DNA of 64,000 nt from Verrucomicrobiota bacterium (GCA_040766265.1 JAXGQW010000012.1:7901-71900); one strand, 5' to 3'. Positions 6,600 through 63,183 are shown, numbered from the stretch's first letter. The notes: a model not told the origin generated them from the sequence alone. Translations and numbers: made by a program.

Positions 6600-7061
6600 A
6601 AGCCTCTTCTCGCCTGCCCTCCGCCCATCTCGCACCCTGTTTGCGCGCGCGGCGATCGGGCGCCGCACGATGACCTCATCTCTGCATCCGGTGAGCGTAA
6701 ATGGAGCCAAACTCGATGCAGTGGTGGAGACTTTTTCTCTTTTTTTGCTTGAGAGATCGGCTTGGTTGGGCGATAAGAAGCCGCGTCAGGCGGTTGTGTG
6801 AAGTGACCGCGGATCTTTGGCAAACCATGAATTCGACACTGGCTTTACCCTGCCACTGCTCGTGATTAGAAACTAAGTCCTTGAACCGTAGTCTGACCTA
6901 GACACGGAATCCGGATGCCGCACGGTTGCCGACAGGCCTTGACTGGAAGTCGAAGACCGCGGCGAGGGTTCCACCTGTTTCTTACAAGTTCAAAGGAACT
7001 GTTGCACACGGCATTGTGGCGGGGTTCTTTTTTTTACACCCGCCGACCGGTCGCGCGGCCC

Positions 7062-7880
7062 TCAATCTTCGAGTCCGGGTTGCAGCGTGGCCGGGTGCAG
7101 CATCGAGGGCCGGGAGGAGGTCCATCGGGATGCCCGGTCGTAGAAGAAGGGTTCACCGACCAGCGTGACACCATCGGCATACTTGGCCGCCGCGCCGCGC
7201 ATGAGATCGAACGTCTCGACCAGTTCGCGGAACCAATTCGGAAAGCGGTCGGTGAACTTCAGTTCGAGAATCACCTTTTCGCCGAACGGCTTCACTGGAT
7301 TGCGCAGGTGGGTGCTCATTTGGGCGCTGAACTCAGGCGAACAATAGACGTCCCGGTCCATGGTCACGCGGATCGAGTTGCCGTGCGTGCTCATCCAGGC
7401 CTCGCGGGAGTAGGTGACGTGCATTATTGGGCCTGCCCGGATGCCGAGCATCAGGTAGCTGAACCTCTGGAGCGCGACCAGTTCCTTGGGATTCTCCGAC
7501 AGCAGGTGGCGGGGTTCGGGCAAATGACCTGCGAGGAGCCAATCCACGGCGTTGCGGTGCACACCGCCGCGCTGTTTGGAAATGGCGTCGTTCATCCGCC
7601 TCTTGATTTCGAAGAAGACGGGCGAGGAGGGTTGGTCGTCGTAGTACCGCAATCGCAGCTTGTAGCGGTTTTTCAACCCATTGATCGTGTCCCAGTAGGT
7701 CTTGAGCCAATCCGAGTCGAGGTAGAGGCTGTGAATGCGGTACGAGTAATCCGGTTGGTCCTGGGAGTACTCGTCCAAGTCCAGATAGGAGCGGACGTAA
7801 TCCCGGATCGCGAGGGCCTTGTGCTCGCTGATGATGTACTTCAATTCCAGCCGTTGCTGTTGCAGCCGGTCTTGTTTCAT
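7062..7880 (-). CDS. VTC (polyphosphate polymerase, CYTH-like) domain-containing protein
   Basis: 272 aa. 'ELKYIISEHKA', 'YRIHSLYLDS', 'YKLRLRYYDD', 'FFEIKRR' and 'VILELKF' match bacterial VTC-domain proteins. Confidence 0.8.
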   Translation of the reverse strand: MKQDRLQQQRLELKYIISEHKALAIRDYVRSYLDLDEYSQDQPDYSYRIHSLYLDSDWLKTYWDTINGLKNRYKLRLRYYDDQPSSPVFFEIKRRMNDAISKQRGGVHRNAVDWLLAGHLPEPRHLLSENPKELVALQRFSYLMLGIRAGPIMHVTYSREAWMSTHGNSIRVTMDRDVYCSPEFSAQMSTHLRNPVKPFGEKVILELKFTDRFPNWFRELVETFDLMRGAAAKYADGVTLVGEPFFYDRASRWTSSRPSMLHPATLQPGLED

Positions 7881-8071
7881 GGCTGGCCTCCGCGGCGATC
7901 GAAACTCACCGCGATCGGATCACCTCGTTCTCGGCTCCGCTGGTTACTCTCGTCGACCATTTTACCCACCACGATCCGCGGACGGAGCGCAGCCGTCTGG
8001 CCTTCGCGGCTGTTCACCCGCATCCGGATTCCCAACGCTCTGAGGGGCTCCTCGCCTTGCGACACCGTCAT
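7877..8071 (-). CDS. possible small protein (64 aa) translationally coupled to the VTC gene
   Basis: Its TGA overlaps the VTC ATG (ATGA at 7880-7877). About 70% of third codon positions are G/C by hand count. No family recognised, so it may be spurious. Confidence 0.25.
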   Translation of the reverse strand: MTVSQGEEPLRALGIRMRVNSREGQTAALRPRIVVGKMVDESNQRSRERGDPIAVSFDRRGGQP

Positions 8072-8241
8072 GCGCCATCCCGTTAATAACAGCAGGTTTG
8101 GTACCAAAAAAACCGCCTCGGACACCCTCGACCGCGCCGCAGGCGACCGCACGGGCGGGCGATGACACTCGGTGGTTGGCGGCGCAACGCGTCTCTGCCG
8201 GCGCTGGTGTGAGGTGACTGCTGGCCCGGGGCCGCGCATTC

Positions 8242-8314
8242 CCAACCCGCACAGCAGACATGTTGCGCAATCTGACCGCCCTGTGCACTGACGGGGTGTG
8301 AAACATGCGGCTTA
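8242..8314. repeat. 74-nt CTAG-element, degenerate copy A1, split at its 3' TA by the IS630 insertion (last G at 9439)
   Basis: 'ccaacccgcac...ccctgtgcactgacggggtgtgaaacatgcggctta' aligns with the copies at 9602 and 44215. Confidence 0.8.
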
Positions 8315-8360
8315 TTCGATTTCGCTTTCAAGTTGAGACTAAGTATGCGATCATGGGCAC

Positions 8361-9433
8361 ATGGCAAGACCACGAAGAACGGATTTGTCTTTGGTCGTCA
8401 AGGCCCAGGCTGCCGCGGCCCAAGCCCAGGACCTGCAGGAGTTGCGCATGGCGCAGGCGGTGCTTCTGCCAGCGATCGCCAAGCTGACGCTGGAGCAAAC
8501 GGCAACGGCTTTGGGGGTCGGACGGGCGACCGTCGCCCGTTTGCAGACGCGCTTCCGGCGCAGCAGCAACAACATCCTCCCAACCCGCTCTGCCTGGGGG
8601 GGGCGACGCCGAGCTCTCCTGAGCCGGGAGCAAGAGGAGGCGTTTATGGCCACCTGGAAATCGCAGGCAGAGGCCGGCGAGTTGGTGGTGCTCACGCCCC
8701 TGCGGGCGGCGTTGGACCGGCAACTGGGCCGGCGGGTGAAGCCCTCGGTGGTGTATCGCTTGGTCCAACGGCACCGTTGGCGCAAAGTGGCTCCCGACAC
8801 GCGCCATCCGAAGGCCGATCCCGCAGTGCAGGCCCAATGGAAAAAAAAACGCTGCCCGAGAAGTTGGCGACCGTGCTGACGCCCGAAGCCGTGCAGGACC
8901 GCTGCATTCGCCTGATGTTTCAGGACGAGGCCCGTTTTGGGCGGATGGCCCGGATTCGCCGTTGTTGGGCGCCGGCACCGTTGCGTCCGACGGTGCGCAA
9001 TGGCTACGAGCGGGAATTCACTTACGTCTATGGCGCGGTCAGTCCCCGGGAAGGACACTTGGACTGGAGCCTGAGCGCGAAGATGAACACCGCCCAGATG
9101 AACGGTTTCTTGCTTCAGGTCAGTCAAGCGCATCGACAGGAATTCATTGTCATGGTTGTGGACGGAGCCAGTTCGCACAAGAGCAAGGACCTGGTGGTGC
9201 CGGAAAACGTTCGGTTGATTCCGCTTCCGGGGTACTCTCCGGAACTCAATCCCGAGGAACACATTTGGGATGAGGTGCGGGAGAAGGCCTTTCCGAACCT
9301 GGTGCTCGAGCGGATGGAGTTGGTGGTGGAGCGCCTCAAGCAGGAACTGAGCACGCTGGCAGCGGAGCCTGATCGGGTGCGGAGCATAACAGCCTGGCCT
9401 TGGATTGTTAGTCTCAACTTGAAAGCGAATTAG
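8361..9433 (+). CDS. IS630-family transposase, OrfAB produced by -1 programmed frameshift
   Basis: OrfA (8361..8879) has an HTH N-terminus. The downstream frame carries 'MFQDEARFG', 'VVDGASSHKS' and 'SPELNPEEHIWDEV', consistent with a DDE triad. The two frames are joined by a -1 shift on the A9 run. Confidence 0.85.
8841..8849 (+). promoter_or_regulatory. A9 slippery run, putative -1 frameshift site of the transposase
   Basis: 'caatgg aaaaaaaaa cgc'. The upstream frame stops 30 nt later at 8879. The -1 frame continues as KTLPEKLATV... into the DDE domain. Confidence 0.7.
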
Positions 9434-9438
9434 AATTA

Positions 9439-9481
9439 GCCCGGACATTTCACAAAGCTTCGCGGAGTTTCATATCCGGGC
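9439..9481. repeat. 43-nt hairpin module F1 (GCCCGGA...TCCGGGC)
   Basis: Homologous to 15595-15637 (inverted), with the same position and ends as 39199-39242. Confidence 0.75.
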
Positions 9482-9485
9482 TGTG

Positions 9486-9597
9486 GCAAAACCGCGCCCG
9501 GAAAGGGAACCGGAAGCATTCCGTCGCTCCTGAGAGTGGTCTGCCATGGGAACAGTGTGTTGCAGTTCTCTAACTCTCGGACCTGGCGCGGTTTTGC
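9486..9597. repeat. 112-nt module B1 bounded by the 13-bp inverted repeat GCAAAACCGCGCC/GGCGCGGTTTTGC
   Basis: Same arms and same 112-nt length at 15479-15590 (inverted) and 39247-39358. Confidence 0.85.
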
Positions 9598-9601
9598 TTG
9601 T

Positions 9602-9675
9602 CTAACCCGCATGGGAGTCTTCTTGGGAAGTCTGAGTGCCCTGTGCACTATCGCGGTGTGAAACATGCGGGTTAG
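9602..9675. repeat. 74-nt CTAG-element A2
   Basis: CTAACCCGCAT...ATGCGGGTTAG. The right arm contains the TAA stop (9672-9674) of the epimerase gene. Confidence 0.9.
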
Positions 9676-10742: not shown

Positions 10743-10879
10743 GGCCGGTACAGAACCCGAAATGGAGCGCCGATGCAACTCCAGAAGCGCGTGTGGCAGG
10801 GCTCGTCCCGGCATCGCGATTCACGGGCTGGGCCGGGCAAACCTTTGACATCACGGGGTGAGGCCCTACACTGGACCAG

Positions 10880-12805: not shown

Positions 12806-13798
12806 ATGGTCCGGTCATTTGCATTCACCACGCAGGGGCGCCTGCACACGAAGGACATTGACGCCTTCCTGATGCCGACGCTGCTTGCCGACACGAACCT
12901 GTTCTTGTGGGTGGATCTCGAGGATCCGACGCCCGAGGAGAGCACGTTCTATCTGGATGGGGTGTTTCATTTCCATCCGCTCTCGATCGAGGACTGCGTC
13001 ACCGAGAGCCCGTCGCCCAAAGTCGAGGAGTACCTGCCCAAGGAGGGCGACCGCTTCACGCCCTATCTGTTCATGGTGATTCACGCGGTTGACTACAGCC
13101 GGAAAGACGGCGTGTTCGCCACCAGCGAGTTGAATTTCTTCCTCGGCAAGAATTTCCTGGTCACCTACCACGTCGTTCCGCTCAAGAGCGTCTCCCTCAC
13201 CTCCGAACGCTGCCTGCGCAGCAACGTCCACATCGCCCGCGCCCCCGACCGGGTGGCGCACACGCTCCTGGACACGCTGGTGGACAACTACAGGCCGGCC
13301 CTCGAAGAACTCTCGATCGAGATCGGCGACCTCGAGGACCAGGTGCTGCATCGCCCCGACGCGGAAACGCTCGATCATATTATCCAGATCAAGAAGGAAG
13401 TGCTGCATCTCCGCCAAATCATCGGCCCGCAGCGCGAAGTGCTGGCCCGCTTCGCCAGCGGCGAGTTCAAACTGATCCGCGCCCATCTGGTGCCCTATTA
13501 CCGCAACGTCTACGACGCCCTCCACCACATCTCCGAACTGGCCCAGAGCTACACCGATTCGGTCACTGGCATTCTGCAGGTCTACCTGAACATCTCGTCC
13601 AACCAGACCGGCGAGGTCATCAAACTGCTCACCCTGTTCACGATTGTGACCACGCCTCTGATGATGATCGGCACGTGGTATGGGATGAATTTCAAGAACA
13701 TGCCCGAGCTCGAAGGCGGTTATTGGATCGTTCTGGGTGTCATGCTCGCGAGCACGGCCGCCACCTACTGGTATTTCAAAAAGCGCAAATGGTTCTAG
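12806..13798 (+). CDS. corA: magnesium/cobalt transporter CorA
   Basis: 'YGMNFKNMPEL' (GMN motif) followed by two C-terminal TM helices. Confidence 0.92.
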   Translation: MVRSFAFTTQGRLHTKDIDAFLMPTLLADTNLFLWVDLEDPTPEESTFYLDGVFHFHPLSIEDCVTESPSPKVEEYLPKEGDRFTPYLFMVIHAVDYSRKDGVFATSELNFFLGKNFLVTYHVVPLKSVSLTSERCLRSNVHIARAPDRVAHTLLDTLVDNYRPALEELSIEIGDLEDQVLHRPDAETLDHIIQIKKEVLHLRQIIGPQREVLARFASGEFKLIRAHLVPYYRNVYDALHHISELAQSYTDSVTGILQVYLNISSNQTGEVIKLLTLFTIVTTPLMMIGTWYGMNFKNMPELEGGYWIVLGVMLASTAATYWYFKKRKWF

Positions 13799-13868
13799 CC
13801 CGCATATGTCACACCCCGTCTGTGCACAGGGCACTCAGACTTCGCAAGAGGACTGCTATGCGGGCTAG
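13795..13868. repeat. 74-nt CTAG-element A3 (inverted relative to A2)
   Basis: CTAGCCCGCAT...ATGCGGGCTAG. The left arm contains the corA TAG (13796-13798). Confidence 0.9.
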
Positions 13869-13940
13869 AGTCCTTGACCCCTTCAACGCATCTCAGAAAG
13901 TTGACTTGTCTGCAACGAGTATGACCGGTCAAGGATTCTA
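13866..13940. repeat. 75-nt element C1 (TAGAGTCCTTGACC...GGTCAAGGATTCTA)
   Basis: Inverted homologue of 15239-15313. It shares the TAG at 13866-13868 with the end of A3. Confidence 0.85.
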
Positions 13941-13957: not shown

Positions 13958-15241
13958 ATGCCGTCCCCCAAATCCAGTTTTCTCGACAAGGTCCTCGGAC
14001 GCCTCGGACGCCTCGACACGGCGGACCTGCAGAAGGTGGTCGAGCGATTGGCGCGGGAGCGCAACTTCCTCGAGACGCTCTTCAACACCATCGAGGACGG
14101 CGTGCTGGTCGTCGATGCCGAGGGGCGGGTGGCCTACTGCAATCAGGCGGTCACCCGCCTGCTCGGTTTGGTCCCCGAGAGCGCCGAAGGACAGCCCATC
14201 GCGAGGCTTTTCCCCGAACTCGATTGGGAGAAGATCGCCGCGCTCGATCGCCGCGGCGGCCCGCACGCCACCCGGCACGAACTCGAAGTCAGCTTTCCGC
14301 GGCCGCGCTTCCTGCGGGTCTTGGCGGCTCCGCTCGATGCGGATGCGCAGGGCAGCGCCGGCGTCGCCCTCGTCCTGCACGATGCGACCGAGGCCCGCCA
14401 ACAGACCTTCGAGGCGATCGAGAGTGAACGGCTGCAGGCCCTGACCCTCCTGGCCGCCGGCGTCGCCCACGAGATCGGCAACCCGCTCAACGCCCTCCAC
14501 ATCCACCTTCATTTGATGGAGCGCGAACTCAAGAAGTGGGGGGCGGTGACCGACGCCCCAGCCCCCTCGCGCCCGGGGCGGCGGCGCGCCGCATCGTCCG
14601 CCTCGCCCTCCGGGGGCGAGGCGGCGGAAATTGCCGACCGGATGCACAAATACCTCACGGTGGCCAAGGGCGAGATCGTGCGCCTGGACTACATCGTCAC
14701 GCAGTTTCTCGATGCGATTCGCCCGACGGTTCCCCAGATGCGGCCCGCGTTGCTGAACGACGTGGCCAAGGCGACACTCGACTTGCTCCGCCCGGAACTC
14801 GACAACCGCGGTATCGCCGTCGAGACGCACCTGGCGCGCGACCTGCCTGAGGCGCGATTTGACGCCGCGCAAATCAAGCAGGCCCTGGTGAACCTCATCA
14901 AGAACTCGATGCACGCCATGACCCGGGGCGGCGTTCTCACCATCCGGACAGGCACCGCGGCCGAGGGCGTCTGGATCAGCGTGGGCGATACCGGGACGGG
15001 CATTTCGCAGGAGCGGCTCAGCCGGCTGTTCGAGCCGTTCTTCACGACGAAGAAAAAGGGCACCGGCCTCGGCCTGATGATCGTCTACCGCATCGTGCGC
15101 GAGCACGGCGGGCGCATCGATGTCGAAAGCCATTCGGGCAAGGGCACCGTGTTTCGCCTCTGGTTCCCCCTGCGCGAACGCGGCCCGCGCCTCCTCGAAG
15201 CCGGCGCCGTGGCCGATCAGGAACCGGCCCCAACCGCATAG
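13958..15241 (+). CDS. PAS-domain sensor histidine kinase
   Basis: H-box 'AAGVAHEIGNPLNAL' and an HATPase region 'GDTGTGI...GTGLGL'. Confidence 0.9.
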   Translation: MPSPKSSFLDKVLGRLGRLDTADLQKVVERLARERNFLETLFNTIEDGVLVVDAEGRVAYCNQAVTRLLGLVPESAEGQPIARLFPELDWEKIAALDRRGGPHATRHELEVSFPRPRFLRVLAAPLDADAQGSAGVALVLHDATEARQQTFEAIESERLQALTLLAAGVAHEIGNPLNALHIHLHLMERELKKWGAVTDAPAPSRPGRRRAASSASPSGGEAAEIADRMHKYLTVAKGEIVRLDYIVTQFLDAIRPTVPQMRPALLNDVAKATLDLLRPELDNRGIAVETHLARDLPEARFDAAQIKQALVNLIKNSMHAMTRGGVLTIRTGTAAEGVWISVGDTGTGISQERLSRLFEPFFTTKKKGTGLGLMIVYRIVREHGGRIDVESHSGKGTVFRLWFPLRERGPRLLEAGAVADQEPAPTA

Positions 15242-15313
15242 AATCCTCGACCGGTGAAACATGTTGCAGACAAGTCAAGTTTCTGTGCTGCGTTAAACGG
15301 GTCAAGGATTCTA
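15239..15313. repeat. 75-nt element C2
   Basis: TAGAATCCTCGACC...GGTCAAGGATTCTA. Its first three nt are the kinase TAG stop. Confidence 0.85.
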
Positions 15314-15318
15314 ATGAG

Positions 15319-15400
15319 CGAGGCGCGGGAGAGAAGGGCGGGGAGACACGGGGACACCTCATGGGAAGGGGAGGACTGGATTTGTCTGAGGCGCGCCTCG
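15319..15400. repeat. 82-nt element I1 (CGAGGCGCG...CGCGCCTCG)
   Basis: Inverted homologue of 35480-35560. Confidence 0.8.
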
Positions 15401-15474
15401 CTAGCCCGCATATTGCACACCCCGATGGTGCCCAGGACACTCAGACTTCGCAAGAGGACCACTATGCGGGCTAG
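15401..15474. repeat. 74-nt CTAG-element A4
   Basis: CTAGCCCGCAT...ATGCGGGCTAG, with an A-class interior. Confidence 0.9.
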
Positions 15475-15478
15475 AGAA

Positions 15479-15590
15479 GCAAAACCGCGCCAGGTTCGAG
15501 AGATCGAGAACTGCAACACACTGTTCCCATGACAGACCACTCTCGGGACCGACAGAAAACTCCCGGTTCCCTTTCTGGGCGCGGTTTTGC
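15479..15590. repeat. 112-nt module B2 (inverted copy of B1)
   Basis: Same 13-bp arms. The interior is close to the reverse complement of 9499-9584. Confidence 0.85.
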
Positions 15591-15594
15591 CAGA

Positions 15595-15637
15595 GCCCGG
15601 GTGTCGGACTCCGCGGAGCTTTGTGAAACAACCGGGC
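15595..15637. repeat. 43-nt hairpin module F2
   Basis: Reverse complement aligns with 9439-9481 ('tttcacaaagct.cgcggagt'). Confidence 0.75.
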
Positions 15638-15647
15638 TAGCCCGCAT
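15637..15647. repeat. terminal remnant (CTAGCCCGCAT) of a 74-nt CTAG-element
   Basis: Only the 11-nt arm is present. Its last two nt plus the next G form the queE ATG. Confidence 0.6.
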
Positions 15648-16380
15648 GCCCGATCATCTGACCGTCAACGAGATCTACCTCGGCGTGCAGGGCGAAAGCA
15701 CATTCGCCGGTCTGCCGTGCGTCCTGATCCGGCTCACGGGATGCAATCTGCGCTGCTCGTATTGCGACACCGCCTATGCGTTCAGGCAAGGCCGCCGTCG
15801 GACGCTCGAGGACGTCCGGGCCGAGGTCCGCCGTTTGGCGGCGCCCTATCGCGCCGTTCGCCGGCCGGTCTCGATTCCCTTGGTCGAGTTGACGGGCGGC
15901 GAGCCGCTTCTGCAGCCGGGATCGCTGCCGCTGCTCGAAGCGTTATGCGACGACGGTTACACCGTGCTGCTCGAGACCAGCGGCGCGCTCGACATCGCGC
16001 CGGTCGACACCCGCGTGCGGCGCATCATGGATCTCAAGTGTCCGAGCAGCGGCGAGAGCGCCCAAAACCGATGGGAGAACCTGGCGCACCTGCGGGCGAC
16101 CGACGAAGTGAAGTTCGTGATCGGAACCGAACAAGACTACCGCTGGGCGCGGCAGGTCGTCTCCGAGCGCCGCCTCGATGAGATGTGCCCGCTCCTGTTC
16201 TCCTGGGTTTCGCCGCTCGGAGCCCGGCAGTGCGATCCGTCCCTCAAGTCCTCCCCCCCCGGCCAGACCCCGATCTCGCGGCGCGCTCTCGCCGAGCGGA
16301 TCATTGCGGATGCTCTGCCGGTTCGTTTCCAGGTGCAATTGCACAAGGTCATCTGGCCCGCAGACCAACGAGGCGTTTGA
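15646..16380 (+). CDS. queE: 7-carboxy-7-deazaguanine synthase (radical SAM)
   Basis: 'EIYLGVQGESTFAGLPCVLIRLTGCNLRCSYCDT'. I set the start to ATG 15646, because the upstream part of ORF-track 15529.. is repeat sequence. Confidence 0.9.
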   Translation: MPDHLTVNEIYLGVQGESTFAGLPCVLIRLTGCNLRCSYCDTAYAFRQGRRRTLEDVRAEVRRLAAPYRAVRRPVSIPLVELTGGEPLLQPGSLPLLEALCDDGYTVLLETSGALDIAPVDTRVRRIMDLKCPSSGESAQNRWENLAHLRATDEVKFVIGTEQDYRWARQVVSERRLDEMCPLLFSWVSPLGARQCDPSLKSSPPGQTPISRRALAERIIADALPVRFQVQLHKVIWPADQRGV

Positions 16381-24150: not shown

Positions 24151-24197
24151 CCCCTTCGTGTTCTTCGTGCTCTTCGTGGTAGTTTGTCTTCACAACA
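24151..24197. repeat. 47-nt direct repeat (copy 1), covers the stop codon and 3' flank of the GxxExxY gene
   Basis: 'ccccttcgtgttcttcgtgctcttcgtggtagtttgtcttcacaaca' is 46/47 identical to 24582-24628. Confidence 0.9.
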
Positions 24198-24573
24198 CAA
24201 AGCGTTTGATGCCGTCCTTGAGCAGCGGGACATTGAAGTTGATCAACAGGCCGATATTGAGTTTTGCCAGCTTCAGGTATGTCAGCAGTTGAGCTTCGTG
24301 GATGGGCTCGATGGCGGCGACCGCCTTCAACTCGACAACAATCTTGCGGTCCACGAGCAGGTCCAGCCGATAGCCGCAGTCGATCAGAATGCCCTTATAG
24401 CTCACTGGCATCGGCTTCTGGCGCTCATACGGGATGCCCTGCAAGGTCAGTTCATGCGCCAGGCATTGTTCATATGCGGACTCCAAGAGCCCCGGCCCAA
24501 GTTCCCGGTGGACCTCGATGGCGCAGCCGATAATCTTCTTCGAAAGACCGTCGAACTCAATCGCACCCTTCAT
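24190..24573 (-). CDS. GxxExxY protein (PD-(D/E)xK nuclease superfamily)
   Basis: 'IIGCAIEVHRELGPGLLESAYEQCLAHEL'. A start at ATG 24573 gives about 127 aa with GGAG 8-9 nt upstream. The ORF-track start (GTG 24624) would add a HEEHEEHEG tail encoded by the repeat. Confidence 0.85.
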   Translation of the reverse strand: MKGAIEFDGLSKKIIGCAIEVHRELGPGLLESAYEQCLAHELTLQGIPYERQKPMPVSYKGILIDCGYRLDLLVDRKIVVELKAVAAIEPIHEAQLLTYLKLAKLNIGLLINFNVPLLKDGIKRFVL

Positions 24574-24581
24574 CTCATTCT

Positions 24582-24628
24582 CCCCTTCGTGTTCTTCGTG
24601 CTCTTCGTGGTGGTTTGTCTTCACAACA
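24582..24628. repeat. 47-nt direct repeat (copy 2), immediately 5' of the GxxExxY gene
   Basis: See 24151-24197. The reverse complement begins 'tgttgtga', which looks like the last codons and stop of another GxxExxY-type gene. Confidence 0.9.
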
Positions 24629-26847: not shown

Positions 26848-26921
26848 CTAACCCGCATATTGGACGCCCCGTTCGTGCACAGGGCGGTCTGAATTCGCAA
26901 GCAGACTGCCATGCGGGCTAG
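26848..26921. repeat. 74-nt CTAG-element A6, lying inside the 3' end of the next CDS
   Basis: CTAACCCGCAT...ATGCGGGCTAG with an A-class interior. Confidence 0.9.
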
Positions 26922-28794
26922 ATCCGGGCTCCCCGAGAAGAACCGGAAGCAGTGTCAGGGCGTCCCGGAAGTCCGGGATGACCACGTCCGCGCCCACGCC
27001 CAGCAGGCGCTGCCGCTTCCACTCGTCGAACTGTCCCGAGCCGTTGTTGGCTTCGTCGCTGGCCACGGCGACGGCCAGGCCGCCGACCTCCTTCGTGTTT
27101 TGAATCTCGACGTAGCCGTCGCCGAACGAGAGCAACTGGGCGCCGTCGATACGGTTCTCCCGCAGGATGCGGTCGATCACCATCTTCTTCGAGAACTGTT
27201 TGTAGTCGTCGAGGGCGCCGTAGATGCGTGGGCCGAAGTACTGGGAGAGCCCCAGGGCCGCGGCCTCCTGTTTCACGAACACCTCGTCCGTCCCGCTGGC
27301 CAGGTAAAGCGAGAACCCGCGCCGCCGCAGCTCGTCGAGAAACGGGCGGGCTTCGAAGACGAGCAGATCGTCCGGCTCGAGCGTTCCGCCGGCGAGGGCG
27401 TCGATCCGATGGCGGATGCGGGCATCGAGCCGGCGCAGGTACTCGTGCTTGTACCAGAGCGGTTCGCGCGGCTCGCCTCCGCGCTCACGGATGCGCTCGG
27501 CCAGTTGGATCATCTGGTAGATCGTCTGCTTGCCGTTGAGCCGCATGATGTCCTCGAACGCCAACTGGCGCAGCGCCTCGGGCGTCTCGCCCGGTTGCGC
27601 CGGCAGCATCTCGACGAACATCGGCACCATCACATCCGGCCAGCCCTGCCGGATCAGCGACAGCGTGCCGTCAAAGTCGAACAGCACATGGCTGATGCCG
27701 GGGCGCGGCGCGAACGAGGGCGCGAATTCGACCAAACCGTGAAAAGACCCGCTTGCAGCCTGTTCTGGCGGTGTTGCGGCTTCGGGCTCGGGCCCTGTTT
27801 CCGCAATCTCGAGGTCTCCCGCTGCGGCCTCGGGGGTTTCGTTCGGCTCGATCAGGTGCGTTTCCTGCGGGCTGTCGATTGCCTGCGCCGGGCCGGACGA
27901 GACGCTGTCTCCCGGGGCGGCGGGCTGATCCGGGGAGTCGCCCGCGCTTCGAGGCGGCGATGGCTGGGGCAAGGCCTCGACCGATGACGTTGAGGCTGGC
28001 GCCGCGGCACCAGGTTGAACGGTCACGAGGGCGCGCCGGAGCAACTGACCCTGAAACACATGTCCGACGGCCACGGTCTCGAGCACCGTCGCGCCCTCGG
28101 GGACCGTCGCCTTCGCATCGGGCAACTGGTGCTTCTCGGGGTCGAAGGGCGTGCCCGGGGCGGCCACGATGGGGACCATGCCGACGCGGCGCGCGGCATC
28201 GCGGCAGGCGTTCTGAAACTGGGTGAACTCGTGGATGAGCCCGGCCTGGCCGGACCGCACGCCGGCCAGGTAGAGGGCGTAGACATTGTCCAGGATGCGG
28301 ACGAGGACCTGGAGCCAGTCGCCCTCGGCGCGGCGGAGTTTCGTGGCCTCGAGGCGCAGGTGATGGCGCTCGGAGTCCTCCGCTCTCTGCATGAAGGCCT
28401 GGAAGGCGCGCTGCTCCTCGGTCATGCGATCGATGACCTCGCGCGCCGCGGCGACCGTTTTGCCGGCGTGTTCGTGCGCCGTTTGCCACTGGCCGGTGGC
28501 GGTCTCGATGCGGCCCGCGACATCCTGGACCTGCTCGATTTGCCGGAGGGTGTCGGCCAGGCCATCCATCTCGACGAGCTTGAGTTCGGCGTGGTGCCGG
28601 AGGCGAAAGGGCCACACGGCCAGCATGGCGCCCAGGGCCACGCAGGCGGCAAAAGCGCACACCTCGATGGCTGTCATGGGCCGGTGCGCCTGCTGCCAGA
28701 TCACCAGGGCGGCTGCCACCAGGAGGAGGTCGCCGACAACAAAGGGCAGAAAGAGCTTTGCGCCCAGGTTCACTCGAGTGGTGCGGTCCGTCAT
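26848..28794 (-). CDS. membrane-anchored GrpE-like domain fused to a HAD-family hydrolase
   Basis: Two N-terminal TM helices and a coiled coil, then 'ILDNVYAL...GTPFDPEKHQ...VGHVFQGQLLRRALVTV' (GrpE C-terminal pattern). A Pro/Ala/Ser linker follows, then 'VLFDFDGTLS...ASGTD...SFGDG' (HAD motifs I-IV). Start at ATG 28794; the upstream part of the ORF-track ORF is repeat sequence. Confidence 0.75.
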   Translation of the reverse strand: MTDRTTRVNLGAKLFLPFVVGDLLLVAAALVIWQQAHRPMTAIEVCAFAACVALGAMLAVWPFRLRHHAELKLVEMDGLADTLRQIEQVQDVAGRIETATGQWQTAHEHAGKTVAAAREVIDRMTEEQRAFQAFMQRAEDSERHHLRLEATKLRRAEGDWLQVLVRILDNVYALYLAGVRSGQAGLIHEFTQFQNACRDAARRVGMVPIVAAPGTPFDPEKHQLPDAKATVPEGATVLETVAVGHVFQGQLLRRALVTVQPGAAAPASTSSVEALPQPSPPRSAGDSPDQPAAPGDSVSSGPAQAIDSPQETHLIEPNETPEAAAGDLEIAETGPEPEAATPPEQAASGSFHGLVEFAPSFAPRPGISHVLFDFDGTLSLIRQGWPDVMVPMFVEMLPAQPGETPEALRQLAFEDIMRLNGKQTIYQMIQLAERIRERGGEPREPLWYKHEYLRRLDARIRHRIDALAGGTLEPDDLLVFEARPFLDELRRRGFSLYLASGTDEVFVKQEAAALGLSQYFGPRIYGALDDYKQFSKKMVIDRILRENRIDGAQLLSFGDGYVEIQNTKEVGGLAVAVASDEANNGSGQFDEWKRQRLLGVGADVVIPDFRDALTLLPVLLGEPGSSPHGSLLANSDRPVHERGVQYAG

Positions 28795-28862
28795 GGGGCC
28801 GGAGGTTATGCCGGCGCACCCGCGGCTGGCCACGGAAAAGTTGCGTGAGGGCGGGGCGGGCG

Positions 28863-28995
28863 GTGCATGTGGTTGTTGTCGGTGCTTGTGTCGCCCGGTG
28901 AGGGCACCGGGGCTACACCGGTTGCAGACTCCCGGTGCAGGCCGCGTGCCCCCACGCAGCGCAAACCCGCTCCCCACCGACAATCTCCGATGCTG
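28863..28995. repeat. ~133-nt element E3 (inverted relative to E1/E2)
   Basis: Collinear with 35126-35258 and 51286-51418. Contains hairpins CCCGGTG-AGGG-CACCGGG and GCCGCGTG-CCCC-CACGC(A)GC. Confidence 0.85.
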
Positions 28996-29405
28996 TAGGC
29001 CGCGCCCTCACGCGGCGCGAGGACGACATCGGGGACGCCGGGTGGGACCCGGCCTACAAATGAACGGACACCGATGCTGTAGGCCGCGTGCCCTCACGCG
29101 GCGCGAGGACAGACATCGGTGCGGACGCCGGGTCAGGGGACCCGGCCTACAAATGAACGGACACCGATGCTGTAGGCCGCGTGCCCTCACGCGGCGCGAG
29201 GAGACATCGGTGCGACGCCGGGTCGGGGACCCGGCCTAAGAACGGACACCGGCAGGCCGCGTGCCCTCACGCGGCGCGAGGACAGACATCGGTGCAGACG
29301 CCGGGTCAGGGGACCCGGCCTACAAATGAACGGACACCGATGCTGTAGGCCGCGTGCCCTCACGCGGCGCGAGGGCAGCCATCGGTGCGGACGCCGGGCC
29401 AGGGG
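28987..29405. repeat. tandem array, about 5 units of 84-93 bp, hairpin-rich
   Basis: Unit starts (CCGATGCTGTAGGCCGCG) at 28987, 29071, 29164, 29249 (degenerate) and 29337. Each unit holds GCCGCGTG-CCCT-CACGCGGC and GCCGGGTC-AGGG-GACCCGGC hairpins. Confidence 0.9.
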
Positions 29406-34119: not shown

Positions 34120-34192
34120 CTAGCCTGCATGCTGACTTCTCTTGAGAACTCCGGCTTCGCGGTGGCAGAAAGTCGTGATAAATGCAGGCTAG
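34120..34192. repeat. 73-nt CTAG-element H1 (CTAGCCTGCAT...ATGCAGGCTAG)
   Basis: Arms carry a compensatory C>T/G>A change. The interior is related to that of 39126-39199. The right arm contains the TAG stop of the Yip1 gene. Confidence 0.85.
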
Positions 34193-34983: not shown

Positions 34984-35125
34984 AACGGCAAAGATCCAGA
35001 AATATACTGCGTTTGGCGTCGGCGACAATCTCCGAATGCGCCCGGTTCGTCAGCTACAACCCGACGCCGGGTTTGTACTTCACACCCGGAGTTCGCACCG
35101 GCCTCTTCCAACGCGGTCACACTCA

Positions 35126-35258
35126 GTGCATCTGTCAGTTGTCGGTGGGAATGGAGTATGCGCCGCGTGGGGGCACGCGGCCTACAGCGGGAGTCTCCAT
35201 CCGTTGGAGGCCCGGTGCCCTCACCGGGCGACAGAATGTCGACGACTCACAGATGCAC
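35126..35258. repeat. 133-nt element E1 with 19-bp terminal inverted repeat GTGCATCTGTCAGTTGTCG
   Basis: 17/19 arm match (35126-35144 vs 35240-35258). Internal hairpins GCCGCGTG-GGGG-CACGCGGC and CCCGGTG-CCCT-CACCGGG. Confidence 0.9.
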
Positions 35259-35479
35259 CGGGTCACAGTGAGGGGTGCGCAATGGGGATGACAGGACACG
35301 AGAGACACGGTACAAAACAGTCCAAGAAACGAGCCTGCAAATGACCCCGAATGAAACACGGATGAGGCACCGACCGGTTCGCAGTGCGAGCCTTGCCGCG
35401 AAAGTGCAGAACGGGCGCGGCGCTCGCGCCTCTTCCGCAGTCGCATTTTCCCTGTGCGATCTGCGAAGGCTCTGTCTAA

Positions 35480-35560
35480 CGAGGCGCGCCTCAGACCAAA
35501 TCCAATCCTCTTTTCCACGAGGAGTCCCTGTGTTTCCTCGCCCCTCGCTCCCGCGCCTCG
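35480..35560. repeat. 81-nt element I2
   Basis: Aligns with the reverse complement of 15319-15400. Arms are CGAGGCGCG/CGCGCCTCG. Confidence 0.8.
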
Positions 35561-35561
35561 G

Positions 35562-35644
35562 TAGAATCCTTGCGAAACAGAAGAGATAGGGGTGAGGGCC
35601 AAACTTGACCTGATCACAACATGTTTGGGGTTTCAAGGATTCTA
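35562..35644. repeat. 83-nt C-type element C3 (TAGAATCCTTG...TTTCAAGGATTCTA)
   Basis: C-family arms with a divergent interior. It contains the ATG of the next gene. Confidence 0.7.
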
Positions 35645-36766
35645 GCGGCGCTGTGTGCGCTTGTAGCGCTGTTGTTTTTCAGTCGAGCGAGTTTCGGAGG
35701 AGAAGGCCAACCCGGATTCATCGCCGAGGCCTCTCGGGGTGAAGGCATCGCGCCTTCGAAGGATCCACCATTCTACTCGGACAAGCTGAATCTGTTGTGC
35801 TTTCGGGATGAGGCGGGCCTCGAGCGCCCTGTGCTTGGGACGGCGGATTGGATGAAGCGGCGGGGCCATATTCTTGCCGCGATGGAGCAGGTGATGGGGG
35901 CTCGACCGCCGCTCGAATTCGAAGGTCCGCCCCAGGTCGAGGTGCTCGAGGAGACCCCGACCGCCAACGGCGTGCGCCGGAAGATCCTCTACACCGCGGA
36001 ATCGCCCACGAACCGGGTGCCGGCTTATCTGTTCATCCCGCGGAGCGGCGGCGCCAAGCGTCCCGCGATGCTGTGTCTGCACCAGACAACGCCGGAAGGC
36101 AAAGCCGAGATGGCCGGATTGCGCGGCAGGACGAATCGGCAGTTTGGTCTCGAAGTGGCGCAACGAGGCTACGTCACGCTGGTGCCGGACTACCCGAACT
36201 TCGGCGATTACCGGCGCGACGCCTATGCGGCCGGTTACGCCAGCGCCACCATGCAGGGCATCGTCAACCACCGTCGCGCTCTCGACCTGCTGGCGTCGAT
36301 GCCTGAAGTGGACGCCCGCCGCATCGGCGTGCTCGGTCATTCGTTGGGGGGGCATAACGCGCTGTTTCTGGCCGTGTTCGACGAGCGCGTGCGGGTGGTG
36401 GTGACCAGTTGCGGCTTCAACGCGTTCTCGAAGTATTATGGCGGCAATCTGGCCGGCTGGAGCCATGCCGGGTACATGCCGCGGATTCGTTCGGTGTACG
36501 GCTGCGATCCACGGCGGATGCCCTTTGATTTCACCGAGGTGCTCGCCGCCATCGCCCCGCGGCCCGTCTTCATCAACGCGCCGCTGCATGATGACAATTT
36601 CGAAGTGTCGGGGGTCAAGGACTGTGTCCAGGCCGCCGCCCCGGTCTACCGGCTCCTCGGCGCGGTCGAGGCGCTGGTGGCCGTCTACCCCGATGCGGAG
36701 CACGACTTTCCGCCCGAGGTGCGCCGGCAGGCTTACGCCTGGCTCGACCGGCAACTGGGGCTTTGA
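35621..36766 (+). CDS. secreted alpha/beta hydrolase (dienelactone hydrolase / esterase-like)
   Basis: Signal peptide, nucleophile elbow 'GHSLGG' and C-terminal 'AEHDFP'. Confidence 0.8.
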   Translation: MFGVSRILAALCALVALLFFSRASFGGEGQPGFIAEASRGEGIAPSKDPPFYSDKLNLLCFRDEAGLERPVLGTADWMKRRGHILAAMEQVMGARPPLEFEGPPQVEVLEETPTANGVRRKILYTAESPTNRVPAYLFIPRSGGAKRPAMLCLHQTTPEGKAEMAGLRGRTNRQFGLEVAQRGYVTLVPDYPNFGDYRRDAYAAGYASATMQGIVNHRRALDLLASMPEVDARRIGVLGHSLGGHNALFLAVFDERVRVVVTSCGFNAFSKYYGGNLAGWSHAGYMPRIRSVYGCDPRRMPFDFTEVLAAIAPRPVFINAPLHDDNFEVSGVKDCVQAAAPVYRLLGAVEALVAVYPDAEHDFPPEVRRQAYAWLDRQLGL

Positions 36767-36850
36767 CGTTGCACCTGGATGCGCGGCCCGTCCGGTCGCG
36801 TGCAAAGTCGCGGTCACCGTTGACATGGGAGGGTGACGTGTGGGCGGAGA

Positions 36851-36957
36851 CCATGAACCGGAAACGTTCAACGCTCAACGTTCAACGCTCAACGCTCAAC
36901 GCTCAACGCCCAACGTTCAACGCTCAACGTTCAACCCATCAACCATCAGCCATCAGA
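36851..36957. repeat. G-type element: CCATGAACCG head plus 13 tandem heptamers
   Basis: 36867-36957 is 13 x 7 nt: ten (C/T)(C/T)CAACG-type units then three CATCA(A/G)(C/A) units. The same head occurs at 46578 and 60142. Confidence 0.85.
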
Positions 36958-39125: not shown

Positions 39126-39199
39126 CTAACCCGCGTGGGTCCGCGTCTTGGAGTCTCCGGCGTCGCGGTGGTCACAACTCGGTGAAACATGCGGGTTAG
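39126..39199. repeat. 74-nt CTAG-element A7 (divergent interior)
   Basis: CTAACCCGCGT...ATGCGGGTTAG, 13 nt upstream of the holA start. Confidence 0.85.
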
Positions 39200-39242
39200 C
39201 CCGGATTTCTCACCACTGCGAAGATGACAAAGAAATCCGGGC
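39199..39242. repeat. 44-nt hairpin module F3
   Basis: CCCGGATTTCT...AGAAATCCGGG forms an 11-bp stem. Confidence 0.8.
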
Positions 39243-39246
39243 TGTG

Positions 39247-39358
39247 GCAAAACCGCGCCGGGAGAGGTGAAAGCCTGGGTCTGGTCGAGCGGGAAGACGC
39301 AGTCGCAAACCGACGCCCCGTTGCCTTCGTCCCTCCCTCCAACCCGGCGCGGTTTTGC
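39247..39358. repeat. 112-nt module B3 (same arms and length as B1/B2, unrelated 86-nt interior)
   Basis: GCAAAACCGCGCC at 39247-39259 and GGCGCGGTTTTGC at 39346-39358. Confidence 0.85.
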
Positions 39359-39362
39359 TTGG

Positions 39363-39436
39363 CTAGCGCGCATGAGTGCACCTTTCGATGACATCGGCTC
39401 CGCGTTGTTCAGAAGTTGTTGAGCAATGCGCGCTAG
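39363..39436. repeat. 74-nt CTAG-element D1 (CTAGCGCGCAT...ATGCGCGCTAG)
   Basis: Near-identical to 63110-63183. The right arm contains the TAG stop of the next gene. Confidence 0.9.
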
Positions 39437-40122: not shown

Positions 40123-41265
40123 ATGTGCAGAACGTGGATCTTTCTGCGAGGCGGCCTTGTCGGATGTCTCTGTCTGGCGTCACTCGCCTTTCCAGCCGAT
40201 CCGGCGGGGCGGCCCGCCCCAACACCACCGCCACTGCCGCCGGCACCGCCGGCCCGCGGGACGCCCGCCGGCCCGGTTTCGGCCCGAGCGCCGGCGTCCG
40301 CGGCGTCTGTGTCGACGAACAGCGCGGCGGCTCCTCGCGCGACGCCCGCGCGCGCCGGGACGGTGAATCAGCGGTTCTCGCCCGGGGCCGTCAGCGTCCC
40401 GTTGTCCGATCCGTCCTACATCCCGGGCTTGACCCCGGCGATCGTGGTCGGGCCGCCCGTACCTCTGGCGCCCCAGCAGCCCGGCACGCCGTTCCCGTAC
40501 TCCGCTCCACGGCCCGCGCGCGTCCAGGAGACGGTGTTCGCCTATGACGCTTTGATCAAGGAAACCACGCTCAAGGCGGGCGAGACCTCGGCCTACTTCA
40601 CCTTTCAACTGACGAATACTTCGCCCGAGGCGGTCACCATCAACGCCGTGCGCACATCCTGCGGTTGCGCCGTCGCGAAGTTGCCGTCCGTTCCGTGGCG
40701 AATCGAGCCGCAGGCGAGCGGGGCGTTCGATGTGGTGGTGGACGTACGCGGCTCGAGGGGCGTGGCCACGAAGACTGTGACGATCGACAGCACGGCCGGT
40801 TACCGCTACCTCACGGTGCGTGTGGCGATGCCCGAGTCGGCGTCGCCGATGGCCGCGGCGGACCGCGCGCGGAACCTGCAGGTTGCGTTGGCGGATCGCC
40901 AGGCGGTTTTCAAGGGGGATTGTGCCGCATGCCATTTGCAGCCCGTGATTGCGCAGCATGGGCAGGCGCTGTTCAAGAGCGCCTGCGGCATCTGCCACGA
41001 GGCCCAACGCCGGGCTGCCGCGGTCCCCGACTTGCGGGCCCTGAACAAGCCCACGGATCGGGCCTACTGGTCGGGCTGGATTGCGAAGGGGAAACCGGGC
41101 GGCCTCATGCCGGCCTGGGCTATCGATGAAGGAGGACCGCTGACCGACCGCCAAATCGAGTCGTTGCTCGATTACCTCACAGGCCCTTTCCGAAACGAAC
41201 CGGCTCGCGCGCCGCTGGCGCCGGGGGCCCCGACACGATCCGGCACAACGCCAGCCGTCCGATAG
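40123..41265 (+). CDS. DUF1573 domain protein fused to a di-haem c-type cytochrome-like C-terminus
   Basis: Signal peptide, a Pro/Ala-rich linker, 'FTFQLTNTSPEAVTINAVRTSCGCAVAKL' (DUF1573), then CAACH and CGICH motifs. Confidence 0.75.
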   Translation: MCRTWIFLRGGLVGCLCLASLAFPADPAGRPAPTPPPLPPAPPARGTPAGPVSARAPASAASVSTNSAAAPRATPARAGTVNQRFSPGAVSVPLSDPSYIPGLTPAIVVGPPVPLAPQQPGTPFPYSAPRPARVQETVFAYDALIKETTLKAGETSAYFTFQLTNTSPEAVTINAVRTSCGCAVAKLPSVPWRIEPQASGAFDVVVDVRGSRGVATKTVTIDSTAGYRYLTVRVAMPESASPMAAADRARNLQVALADRQAVFKGDCAACHLQPVIAQHGQALFKSACGICHEAQRRAAAVPDLRALNKPTDRAYWSGWIAKGKPGGLMPAWAIDEGGPLTDRQIESLLDYLTGPFRNEPARAPLAPGAPTRSGTTPAVR

Positions 41266-41371
41266 TCGGTCGAGCAGTCCTCATGCGGGATCCGACCGCC
41301 ACGTCCGGTGACGGAGCGCGAAATCCCTTTTTTCCGTTGACTGGCGGAAGCTGCTTGATCAGGTTTCGCTC

Positions 41372-44110: not shown

Positions 44111-44214
44111 CGGCCGCGGCGCAAGAGCGGCCGCAGCATTCGTCCTCGGAGGGATGGCTGGCAGCGCGTCGGACTGCGAGGGTCCGGCGAGCTTGCCGTT
44201 GAGGGTTTGCTTTT

Positions 44215-44288
44215 CTAACCCGCATAGCAGTCCTCTTGCGAAGTCTGAGTGCCCTGTGCACCATAGGGGTGTGAAATATGCGGGTTAG
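44215..44288. repeat. 74-nt CTAG-element A8
   Basis: CTAACCCGCAT AGCAGTCCTCTTGCGAAGTCTGAGTGCCCTGTGCACCATAGGGGTGTGAAAT ATGCGGGTTAG. Confidence 0.9.
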
Positions 44289-44344
44289 GCTGGGATGTCC
44301 CGAGAGTCGCTTGACGGCCGGCAATGCGATGTAGCCTGCCTTCG

Positions 44345-46577: not shown

Positions 46578-46642
46578 CCATGAACCTGAAACGTTCAACG
46601 TTCAACGTCCAACTCTCAACTCTCGACTCCTCGGTTCGTAGG
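46578..46642. repeat. short G-type element (CCATGAACCT head, about 5 heptamers, CGGTTCGTAGG tail)
   Basis: 'ccatgaacctgaaacgttcaacgttcaacgtccaactctcaactctcgactcctcggttcgtagg'. Confidence 0.7.
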
Positions 46643-51285: not shown

Positions 51286-51418
51286 GTGTATCTGGAGGTT
51301 CTCGGTGGGAATCGGGTTTGGGCCGCGTGGGGGCACGCGGCCTACACCGGGAGTGTCGATCCCGTGCAGGCCCGGTGCCCTCACCGGGCGGCATCACACC
51401 GACAACTGGCAGATGCAC
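51286..51418. repeat. 133-nt element E2
   Basis: Collinear with E1 without indels: landmark blocks sit at +15, +45, +85 and +125 in both. Confidence 0.9.
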
Positions 51419-51569
51419 CGAGAAGTGCGGGGGGACGGCGCACGCGCTTGACGCAACCCGGTTCGCTGGTATTGTCGCGCCTCTTTGAGATGGGACGCAC
51501 CCTGCGCAGACCGCGATGGCAACGGGATTTGCCGTGCGGGCCGGGGTGCGGCACAGCGAGCGCATTTGC

Positions 51570-63109: not shown

Positions 63110-63183
63110 CTAGCGCGCATGAGTGCACCTTTCGATGACATCGGCTCCCCGTTCTTCAGAAGTTGGTGAGAAATGCGCGCTAG
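63110..63183. repeat. 74-nt CTAG-element D2
   Basis: CTAGCGCGCAT...ATGCGCGCTAG, with the same interior class as 39363-39436. The right arm contains the TAG stop of the next gene. Confidence 0.9.

Follow-up and report, generated by a model that had tools for sequence, protein, structure and literature searches.

The 64-kb window analysed here (64,000 nt of contig JAXGQW010000012.1, positions 7901–71900, from the Verrucomicrobiota assembly GCA_040766265.1; coordinates below are those of the window) has a G+C content of 64% and comes from a lineage of uncultured Verrucomicrobiota of anaerobic digesters and wastewater. Self-comparison of the window reveals short repeats at about a dozen places. 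These repeats are miniature transposable elements that have inverted repeats (MITEs), of 49–130 nt, and the stop codons of seven genes, including corA, the adjacent histidine kinase and an actin-like gene, lie within their termini. We consider it probable that the elements are non-autonomous cut-and-paste transposons of the IS630/Tc1-mariner type that insert at C-TA-G and leave a stop codon in place as TA plus a purine.

Several families can be distinguished. A, A', D and H form a related group, and C, E, F and G are the others. Each element is bounded by TA, with inverted repeats of 8–14 nt directly inside the TA. Family A reads TA-G/A-CCCGCAT...ATGCGGG-C/T-TA over 72 nt, and the ends and core of families A', D and H are related to it. 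Family C reads TA-GAATCCTTGACC...GGTCAAGGATTC-TA over 75–83 nt, with about 14 nt of inverted repeat, and the ends of families E, F and G differ from the A and C types. End sequences across the families include GCCCGCAT, GAATCCTTGACC, GCGAGGCGCG, GAGAAGCAAAACC and GCCCGGA. Adjacent elements in arrays overlap by exactly one TA. A scan with the family library finds 20 copies in the window. The elements are placed as follows, together with an insertion sequence (IS) of the IS630 family (L numbers denote loci of related genomes and metagenomes; rc, reverse complement).

8243..8314, minus strand: old degenerate A copy, ortholog of the single A copy at the epimerase stop in L196 and L199
8313..9438, plus strand: IS630-family IS, at the TA where the old A copy and element G would otherwise meet
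9437..9674, minus strand: array G-F-A5; its right TA+A is the TAA stop of the MR/MLE-type enzyme (epimerase) gene (rc 9672–9674)
13796..13867, plus strand: A-family MITE, 72 nt including the TA at each end; the corA stop (13796–13798) is formed by its first TA+G
13866..13940, plus strand: C-family MITE, 75 nt; its left TA is common with the A copy, and the histidine-kinase start codon lies 18 nt past its right TA
15239..15639, plus strand: five-element array, C 15239–15313, E 15312–15403, A 15402–15473, F 15472–15600 and G 15598–15639, neighbours sharing TAs; its first TA+G is the histidine-kinase stop (15239–15241)
26849..26920, plus strand: A-family MITE (A6), read through by the GrpE/HAD open reading frame (ORF) 26848–28983 (minus strand)
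34121..34191, minus strand: H-family MITE; its right TA+G is the TAG stop of the Yip1-like ORF (rc 34189–34191)
35477..35644, plus strand: pair of E (35477–35563) and C (35562–35644), off stop codons, in the 5' end of an esterase gene
39127..39435, minus strand: array of A' 39127–39198, G 39197–39245, F 39244–39365 and D 39364–39435; its right TA+G is the BFN stop (rc 39433–39435)
44216..44287, minus strand: A-family MITE between convergent genes, without stop overlap (stops 108 nt and 60 nt away)
63111..63182, minus strand: D-family MITE; its right TA+G is the TAG stop of the MreB/actin-like gene (rc 63180–63182), and its left end lies 33 nt from the TGA of the convergent gene

The G-F-A5 array is a 239-nt unit with 85% identity to 15401–15639, in inverse orientation.

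The closest relatives are known from metagenome-assembled genomes (MAGs). The corA protein is 98% identical to that of MAGs RA.bin27, ADurb.Bin006 and SRP263991_co1_516 and 92% identical to that of a fourth MAG, and the DNA identity of the window to these four MAGs is 91–97%. Most public runs that contain the window sequence are metagenomes of digesters, sludge and wastewater, and a few come from soil and manure. Many unrelated contigs of five sister MAGs carry further copies, as do contigs of metagenomes, and orthologous sites are polymorphic. In digester metagenomes the elements are covered about 10–30 times as deeply as the genes beside them, a depth that suggests some tens of copies in each genome.

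Copies were located by similarity to the window families in the window, in 20 loci of the five sister MAGs and in 43 metagenome loci, the last retrieved by a pattern of 24 nt from the interior of family A, which takes no account of the termini. An earlier collection scan with 15 specified bases gave mostly chance matches in unrelated phyla, and 13 of its 110 loci were useful. De novo detection as TA plus a 13-nt inverted repeat was abandoned: shuffled sequence matched equally often (19 versus 18 matches), and all counts are therefore based on family similarity. Genes were called with a codon-usage model trained on Pfam-confirmed genes and were identified by Pfam, with a cut-off of E ≤ 1e-3 for 'Yip1'.

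The elements have the properties of MITEs: they are short (<300 bp) and noncoding, with no ORFs of their own, and they have inverted repeats, a target-site duplication and dispersed polymorphic copies. In the A/A'/D/H group, repeat positions 3–10 are complementary in 48–58 of 60 copies, and positions 3, 5 and 6 covary between the arms (G:C/A:T, C:G/G:C and C:G/T:A); such paired changes in the arms would be expected of subfamilies with matched ends. Folding predicts a terminal stem in every element (z-scores −1.4 to −4.2) and weakly folding interiors. We rejected an identity as structured RNA, given that no element matches Rfam, whose sole hit in the window is a 6S RNA, and that the repeat stem is the only structure. 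Repetitive extragenic palindromes and bacterial interspersed mosaic elements (REP/BIME) are 20–40-nt palindromes without target duplication and are tied to a Y1 (RAYT) transposase. The window elements have a TA duplication and non-palindromic 70-nt interiors, and no RAYT gene was found among the window ORFs submitted to Pfam. None of families A/A'/D/H, C, E, F and G appears to have been described so far.

Stop codons at element termini

A preliminary description of the window had placed seven stop codons in element termini (corA, histidine kinase, epimerase, Yip1-like, BFN, MreB/actin-like and GrpE/HAD), and the coordinates of all seven proved correct. Its gene names are borne out by Pfam, with the exception of the 'Yip1' ORF, which has no Pfam hit at the cut-off; this ORF is coding as judged by its G+C content at third codon positions (GC3, 0.86) and is conserved in three relatives. 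The further proposal that insertion rebuilds the stop fits six of the seven genes, where the stop consists of TA plus the first base of the near terminus. At the GrpE/HAD gene the near CTAG is out of frame, and the ORF continues into element A6 for 24 codons, as far as the TAG of the distant terminus (rc 26848–26850; distance from terminus to stop, d = −70). The orthologous gene in L081 ends ...TCT TAG directly before its own, different element, and the window is shorter than L081 at this gene end, by 8 nt in one alignment and by 1 nt in another. The same read-through geometry (d = −70) recurs at an unrelated site in L272.

Orthologous loci show a single TA where the window has TA...TA at the histidine-kinase (L002), BFN (L082) and epimerase (L197) stops, which is the outcome that a TA duplication predicts. 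At the histidine kinase, L002 reads ...AGCC-TA-GCCCGC-ATG, ending in the queE start codon, and the window reads ...CGCA TA, followed by the 400-nt array C-E-A-F-G and then by TA GCCCGC ATG; L001 has other elements between those two TAs. At the BFN gene, L082 reads ...ATGCGGGT TA AGCGGCG, where the stop TAA is TA plus the A of element A', its only element there. In the window, G, F and D are inserted at this TA, and the second TA precedes GGCGGCG; in L081 an unrelated 290-nt element lies between two TAs, and its G completes TAG. At the epimerase gene, L197 is unoccupied (...GGCTC TAA CTGCGCGG), L198 has TGA at the same codon, and L196 and L199 carry one A copy after the TA. The corresponding old A copy of the window (8243–8314) is now 1.3 kb from the stop, with A5, F, G and the IS630-family IS between, all TA-separated. 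At all three genes the C terminus of the protein is the same in filled and empty sites.

Other loci extend this picture. The corA protein ends ...KKRKWF at an identical position in about 15 orthologs, with TGA, TAA or TAG stops. The H element at the Yip1-like stop is present in L081 and has lost its left repeat by deletion in L082, and L083 has a different element there. At two independent sites (L166/L259 and L264/L267/L276), both termini of one A copy serve as the stops of convergent genes.

Exact coincidence with a stop is by far the commonest arrangement. When the stop of an inward-reading gene was sought within −90 to +200 nt of each outer terminus, 33 of 74 distinct termini lay at a distance of exactly 0, and any other distance occurred at most 4 times; orthologous sites are still included in this count. 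In a manual count, a terminus falls on a stop at about 20 of 41 independent array sites (6/11 in the window, 7/13 in genome loci and 7/17 in metagenome loci). If every TA in tolerated DNA (intergenic sequence plus TAA and TAG stops) were equally likely to be hit, the expected share would be 0.167 (binomial P = 2e-6). Across the window and the fetched loci, the overlap with stops is thus more frequent than chance. The two checks put forward with the preliminary description, on empty sites and on stop overlap, both favour its interpretation.

Two side observations concern stop usage. TAG is the stop of 13 of the 50 called genes (26%), and six or seven of these use the first base of an element; MITEs may inflate TAG usage. 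At four termini the TA has turned into TG (L192 4687, L260 4292, L262 1045 and L242 2738), and the overlapped stop reads TGA+CCCGCA. This suggests drift after insertion from TAA to TGA, the stop preferred by the genome, with the stop kept and the duplication lost.

Target choice and duplication

On the host side of the TA, in the direction of the element, C is the adjoining base at 70 of 81 distinct termini, compared with 26% before TA generally (P ~ 1e-29). On the element side, every one of 99 termini begins with a purine (G 65, A 34), so that TA plus this base is always a stop; in family E, one end reads TA-C in two copies. Among 38 complete distinct copies, the inner bases of the two ends are complementary in 37 and the terminal tetranucleotides are identical in 20, and 11 copies read CTAA...TTAG, an inverted arrangement that is impossible from a 4-bp direct duplication. 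The complementary inner bases indicate that the R/Y base is part of the inverted repeat and that TA alone is duplicated. With the C flank, the single TA of the empty sites and the 37 copies that fit TA plus an inverted first base, the earlier proposal of TA as the duplicated target inside CTAG is upheld. Its rule that elements read C-TA-R at one end and Y-TA-G at the other describes most copies (20 CTAG...CTAG and 11 CTAA...TTAG) and fails in 7 of the 38, and its expectation of new CTAG-like sites at both ends is borne out by the 20 G-first copies.

The same preference is visible at the stops themselves. C-TA-R stops of the window are occupied in 6 of 8 cases, compared with 0 of 8 stops in which TA follows A, G or T (Fisher P = 0.007; 0.035 if the histidine kinase is scored by its window base, element C2 there reading A-TAG in the window and C-TAG in L002 and L003).

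CTAG is a rare word in this genome. The window has 19 copies of it, where base composition predicts 211 (about 11-fold depletion), and 14 of the 19 are at element ends. The other five comprise one unoccupied C-TAG stop, one site in a gene and three outside called genes, one of these in the 6S RNA. In 478 kb of more distant relatives without these elements, CTAG is also depleted, about 13-fold, and about 15% of the CTAG sites close a long high-GC3 ORF in a strict test that recovers 4 of the 5 C-TAG stops of the window. Of the pre-insertion sites in the window, taken as array sites and free CTAGs together, 8 of 14 lie at stops. A preference for CTAG in a CTAG-depleted genome therefore accounts for the enrichment at stops, and no recognition of stops as such is needed. 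The 6S RNA itself (RF00013, 55 bits, full length) lies at 6844–7029 on the plus strand, with its CTAG at 6898; a long ORF at 6915–8165 on the same strand is probably not a gene.

On the reading that we favour, integration would occur at TA with a strong preference for C-TA-G, and the TA would be duplicated so that its copies flank the insert. Where the target is a C-TAG or C-TAA stop, TA from the target and R from the element would together give a stop at the same position; the protein would be unchanged and the insertion tolerated for that reason. Because CTAG is depleted and nearly absent from coding sequence, C-TAG stops would make up a large share of the usable targets, and about half of the arrays would consequently abut a stop. 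Elements that begin with G would remake CTAG on both sides, so that the site could be hit again and arrays with shared TAs could grow, which would account for the arrays and for the finding that separate lineages have used one and the same stop repeatedly and independently. Purifying selection presumably removes insertions elsewhere, and the order of the nested insertions is likewise one that we infer.

Source of mobility and competing explanations

The window contains one candidate source of transposase. The IS at 8313–9438 appears intact, with terminal repeats of about 30 nt, a helix-turn-helix ORF (8385–8879; HTH_33, E = 6e-12, and HTH_23) and, in the −1 frame, a DDE_3 ORF (8837–9433; Pfam, E = 1e-18); an A9 slippery run at about 8841–8849 marks the frame change. 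The IS is absent from L196, L197, L198 and L199, and the lone return of a look-up with the DDE_3 ORF was a second copy, L284, on a short contig of 1.2 kb. By analogy with known systems, a DDE_3 transposase of the IS630 family would move the MITEs. IS630 uses TA inside CTAG as its target and duplicates the TA, according to the Tenzen and Ohtsubo references as they are given in PMC2170065. For the related ISY100, insertion is almost confined to TA, the TA is duplicated, and the transposase by itself is sufficient (PMC2170065). The elements described here resemble both systems in TA duplication and inverted repeats and IS630 in the CTAG preference, and the DDE_3-encoding IS of the window is itself TA-flanked. 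They differ in being noncoding, in their length of 49–130 nt and in repeats unlike those of the window IS, and their mobilization by such an enzyme is presumed.

Several observations weigh against this account. The ends of the IS (TA|ATTCGATTTCGC... and TA|ATTCGATTTCGCTTTCAAG...) are unlike any MITE end, and the MITE repeats match no cognate IS repeats when tested on the one IS available. A tblastn search of the loci fetched up to then returned no other copy of an IS630-family transposase. At least six families with unrelated repeats use one target, so that several cognate transposases, or tolerant ones, would be needed. In families A/A'/D/H the symmetric repeat spans just some 8–9 bp after the TA, compared with the 24 bp protected by the ISY100 transposase. 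The E+C pair at 35477–35644 is absent from L081 and L082, and the empty site there reads CTGTC-TG-GCG, with TG rather than TA. When contigs of digester and biogas-fermenter metagenomes were compared with the histidine-kinase array, neither a clean excision joint nor a transposition event was seen directly; the single joint with good support (15392>15589) arose by deletion between GGCGCG repeats and matches the L003 allele. The relatives compared are MAG contigs throughout, and genes were called with a caller made for this analysis. Finally, the empty histidine-kinase site of L002 contains CTAGCCCGCATG, a sequence similar to the A-type repeat, and corA is directly followed in that locus by a remnant of 15 nt (CTAGCCTGCATGTTT) that is itself repeat-like. 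L002 may therefore have lost elements rather than never had them. Given this remnant, its standing as a pristine empty site is in question; the argument from the number of TAs stands regardless.

The sequence CTAGCCCGCATG (window 15637–15652; L002 4323–4340) is identical to the 12 nt with which the A-type end begins, and it holds the queE start codon ATG. It and the remnant may reflect chance, a footprint or an attraction of elements to repeat-like targets.

Some differences between the window and its relatives are set apart from the comparison of target sites. An insertion in L197 and L001 at window 10787–10824 is made up of G- and H-like copies that have degenerated and lack intact TAs; it is uninformative on the target. 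An 86-nt indel (6607–6694) and indels of 2.5–2.8 kb and 3.1 kb near 39.9–44.4 kb are not TA-bounded elements. Across the 3.1-kb indel (window 41265–44403), L081 lacks the alkaline-phosphatase/fn3 gene (41372–44110) together with the A copy at 44216–44287; 18 nt stand in its place, and its ends are not bounded by TA. In the region of the E+C insertion (35477–35672), the C copy provides an in-frame ATG at 35621 that would add MFGVSRIL- before the hydrophobic leader of the esterase, and relatives without E+C read through CTG GCG GCG... at the 5' end of the esterase gene.

Of the alternatives to insertion by an IS630-type transposase, the one that fares best, improbable as it is, holds that the overlap is kept by selection for function, with the elements acting as RNA hairpins at 3' ends (stabilizer, terminator, processing site or coupling spacer). 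Correia and ERIC repeats are reported to affect transcripts. A terminal stem is predicted for each element here, several elements stand between co-directional genes (corA>HK>queE, where HK is the histidine kinase, and BFN>holA), and the same stops are occupied in several species, at times by different families. The stem, however, is merely the inverted repeat, the interiors fold weakly, Rfam gives no match and no U-tract follows the stems; moreover, elements come and go among close relatives whose genes are unchanged, they also lie in 5' regions and between convergent genes, and target preference alone predicts the observed share of stops.

A second alternative, to which we give less credence still, takes the elements as IS5 derivatives with a 4-bp CTAG/YTAR duplication, the element proper starting at CCCGCAT. 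Some subgroups of the IS5 family make 2–4-bp duplications at TA-containing targets. MITEPsy1 of Pseudomonas syringae, a 100-nt MITE that inserts at CTAG or YTAA, is a close parallel, differing by its 4-nt duplication from the 2-nt duplication plus inverted first base seen here (PMC3189936). The 20 CTAG...CTAG copies fit both models. Against the IS5 model, the 11 CTAA...TTAG copies are independent and inverted, complementary ends far outnumber identical ones (37 versus 20 of 38), the BFN site changes from T-TA-A when empty to T-TA-G...C-TA-G when filled, and the only transposase seen here is of the DDE_3/IS630 type.

That the overlaps are coincidence or an artefact of annotation, any CTAG end closing some ORF, could draw on the fact that a terminus always holds TAG or TAA, so that one third of the ORFs entering it would stop, and on the one case in seven (GrpE/HAD) of the read-through kind. 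The distance spectrum refutes this view: random landing inside 3' ends would commonly give ORFs that end deeper within elements, yet 33 termini lie at d = 0 and only a few at negative distances. The ortholog comparisons refute it as well, in that the stops match the conserved C termini of element-free orthologs (corA, histidine kinase, epimerase and BFN), and the ORFs concerned are 166–1218 amino acids long with Pfam domains or high coding scores.

Related systems, other repeats and implications

Several known systems are comparable. Correia/NEMIS elements of Neisseria and ERIC are bacterial MITEs of about 105–155 nt that are TA-flanked, often co-transcribed with their neighbours and endowed with integration host factor (IHF) sites and promoter activity (in part PMC2229807); they are longer, belong to a different phylum and share no sequence similarity with the elements here. 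RUP of Streptococcus pneumoniae, attributed to IS630-Spn1, and the plant Stowaway elements are likewise short non-autonomous inverted-repeat elements at TA. RUP tends to insert in or near other mobile elements (PMC2229807), which is reminiscent of the arrays described here. The repeats of RUP match its presumed parent IS, whereas such a match was not found for our elements, and in the literature searched neither a strong CTAG context nor systematic stop overlap is described for RUP. BOX repeats of S. pneumoniae encode the extreme 3' stop in 36 genes, with no evidence of truncation (PMC3049150). The outcome is the same as here, but BOX elements are modular (boxA/B/C) and not defined by TA or CTAG, and that report contains no stop-rebuilding mechanism. 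The elements of the window are new families of known IS630-type behaviour and involve no new mechanism or principle.

The window also contains repeats of other kinds. A tandem array at 28860–29395 has a 93-nt period and units with inverted ends (GTAGGCCGCG...CGGCCTAC) that are REP/BIME-like; all 535 nt are absent from L081, and the junction has no TA. A family 'X' of about 140 nt occurs at 35121–35275, 51286–51432 and 28889–28988, with ends CAGTGCATCTGT.../...ACAGATGCAC. The copy at 35123/35261 has the 9-nt direct repeat GGTCACA(C/G)T on its flanks and is absent from L082; the direct repeat points to another type of transposon, one that duplicates 9 bp. Runs of the heptamer CG(T/C)TCAA lie at 36837–36949 and 46578–46627, 9.7 kb apart, each preceded by an identical 20-nt lead-in, CCATGAACC(G/T)GAAACGTTCAAC. 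A 47-nt direct repeat with 98% identity (24151–24197 and 24582–24628, 431 nt apart) flanks a small gene at 24190–24624.

A wider interpretation, which we regard as possible though doubtful, is that the purine-first repeat and the CTAG specificity together form an evolved safe-harbour strategy, in which a stop is rebuilt in either orientation and the swarm of elements shapes its host. If so, C-TAG stops would be the one recurrent and harmless landing pad in a CTAG-purged genome. The share of TAG among the window stops, the change from TAA to TAG or TGA at occupied sites and further depletion of CTAG would be consequences, and arrays at gene ends would be raw material for regulation through 3' untranslated regions and for C-terminal extensions of the GrpE/HAD kind.

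For annotation of this digester and wastewater lineage of Verrucomicrobiota, the elements mean that gene ends overlap repeats, that some ORFs gain element tails and that MAG assemblies are fragmented. The families could be used as strain markers, and as a natural test of whether CTAG avoidance and transposon targeting influence each other. They also offer a clean mechanistic explanation for the spread of small transposons to saturation in a compact, GC-rich bacterial genome whose genes stay intact.

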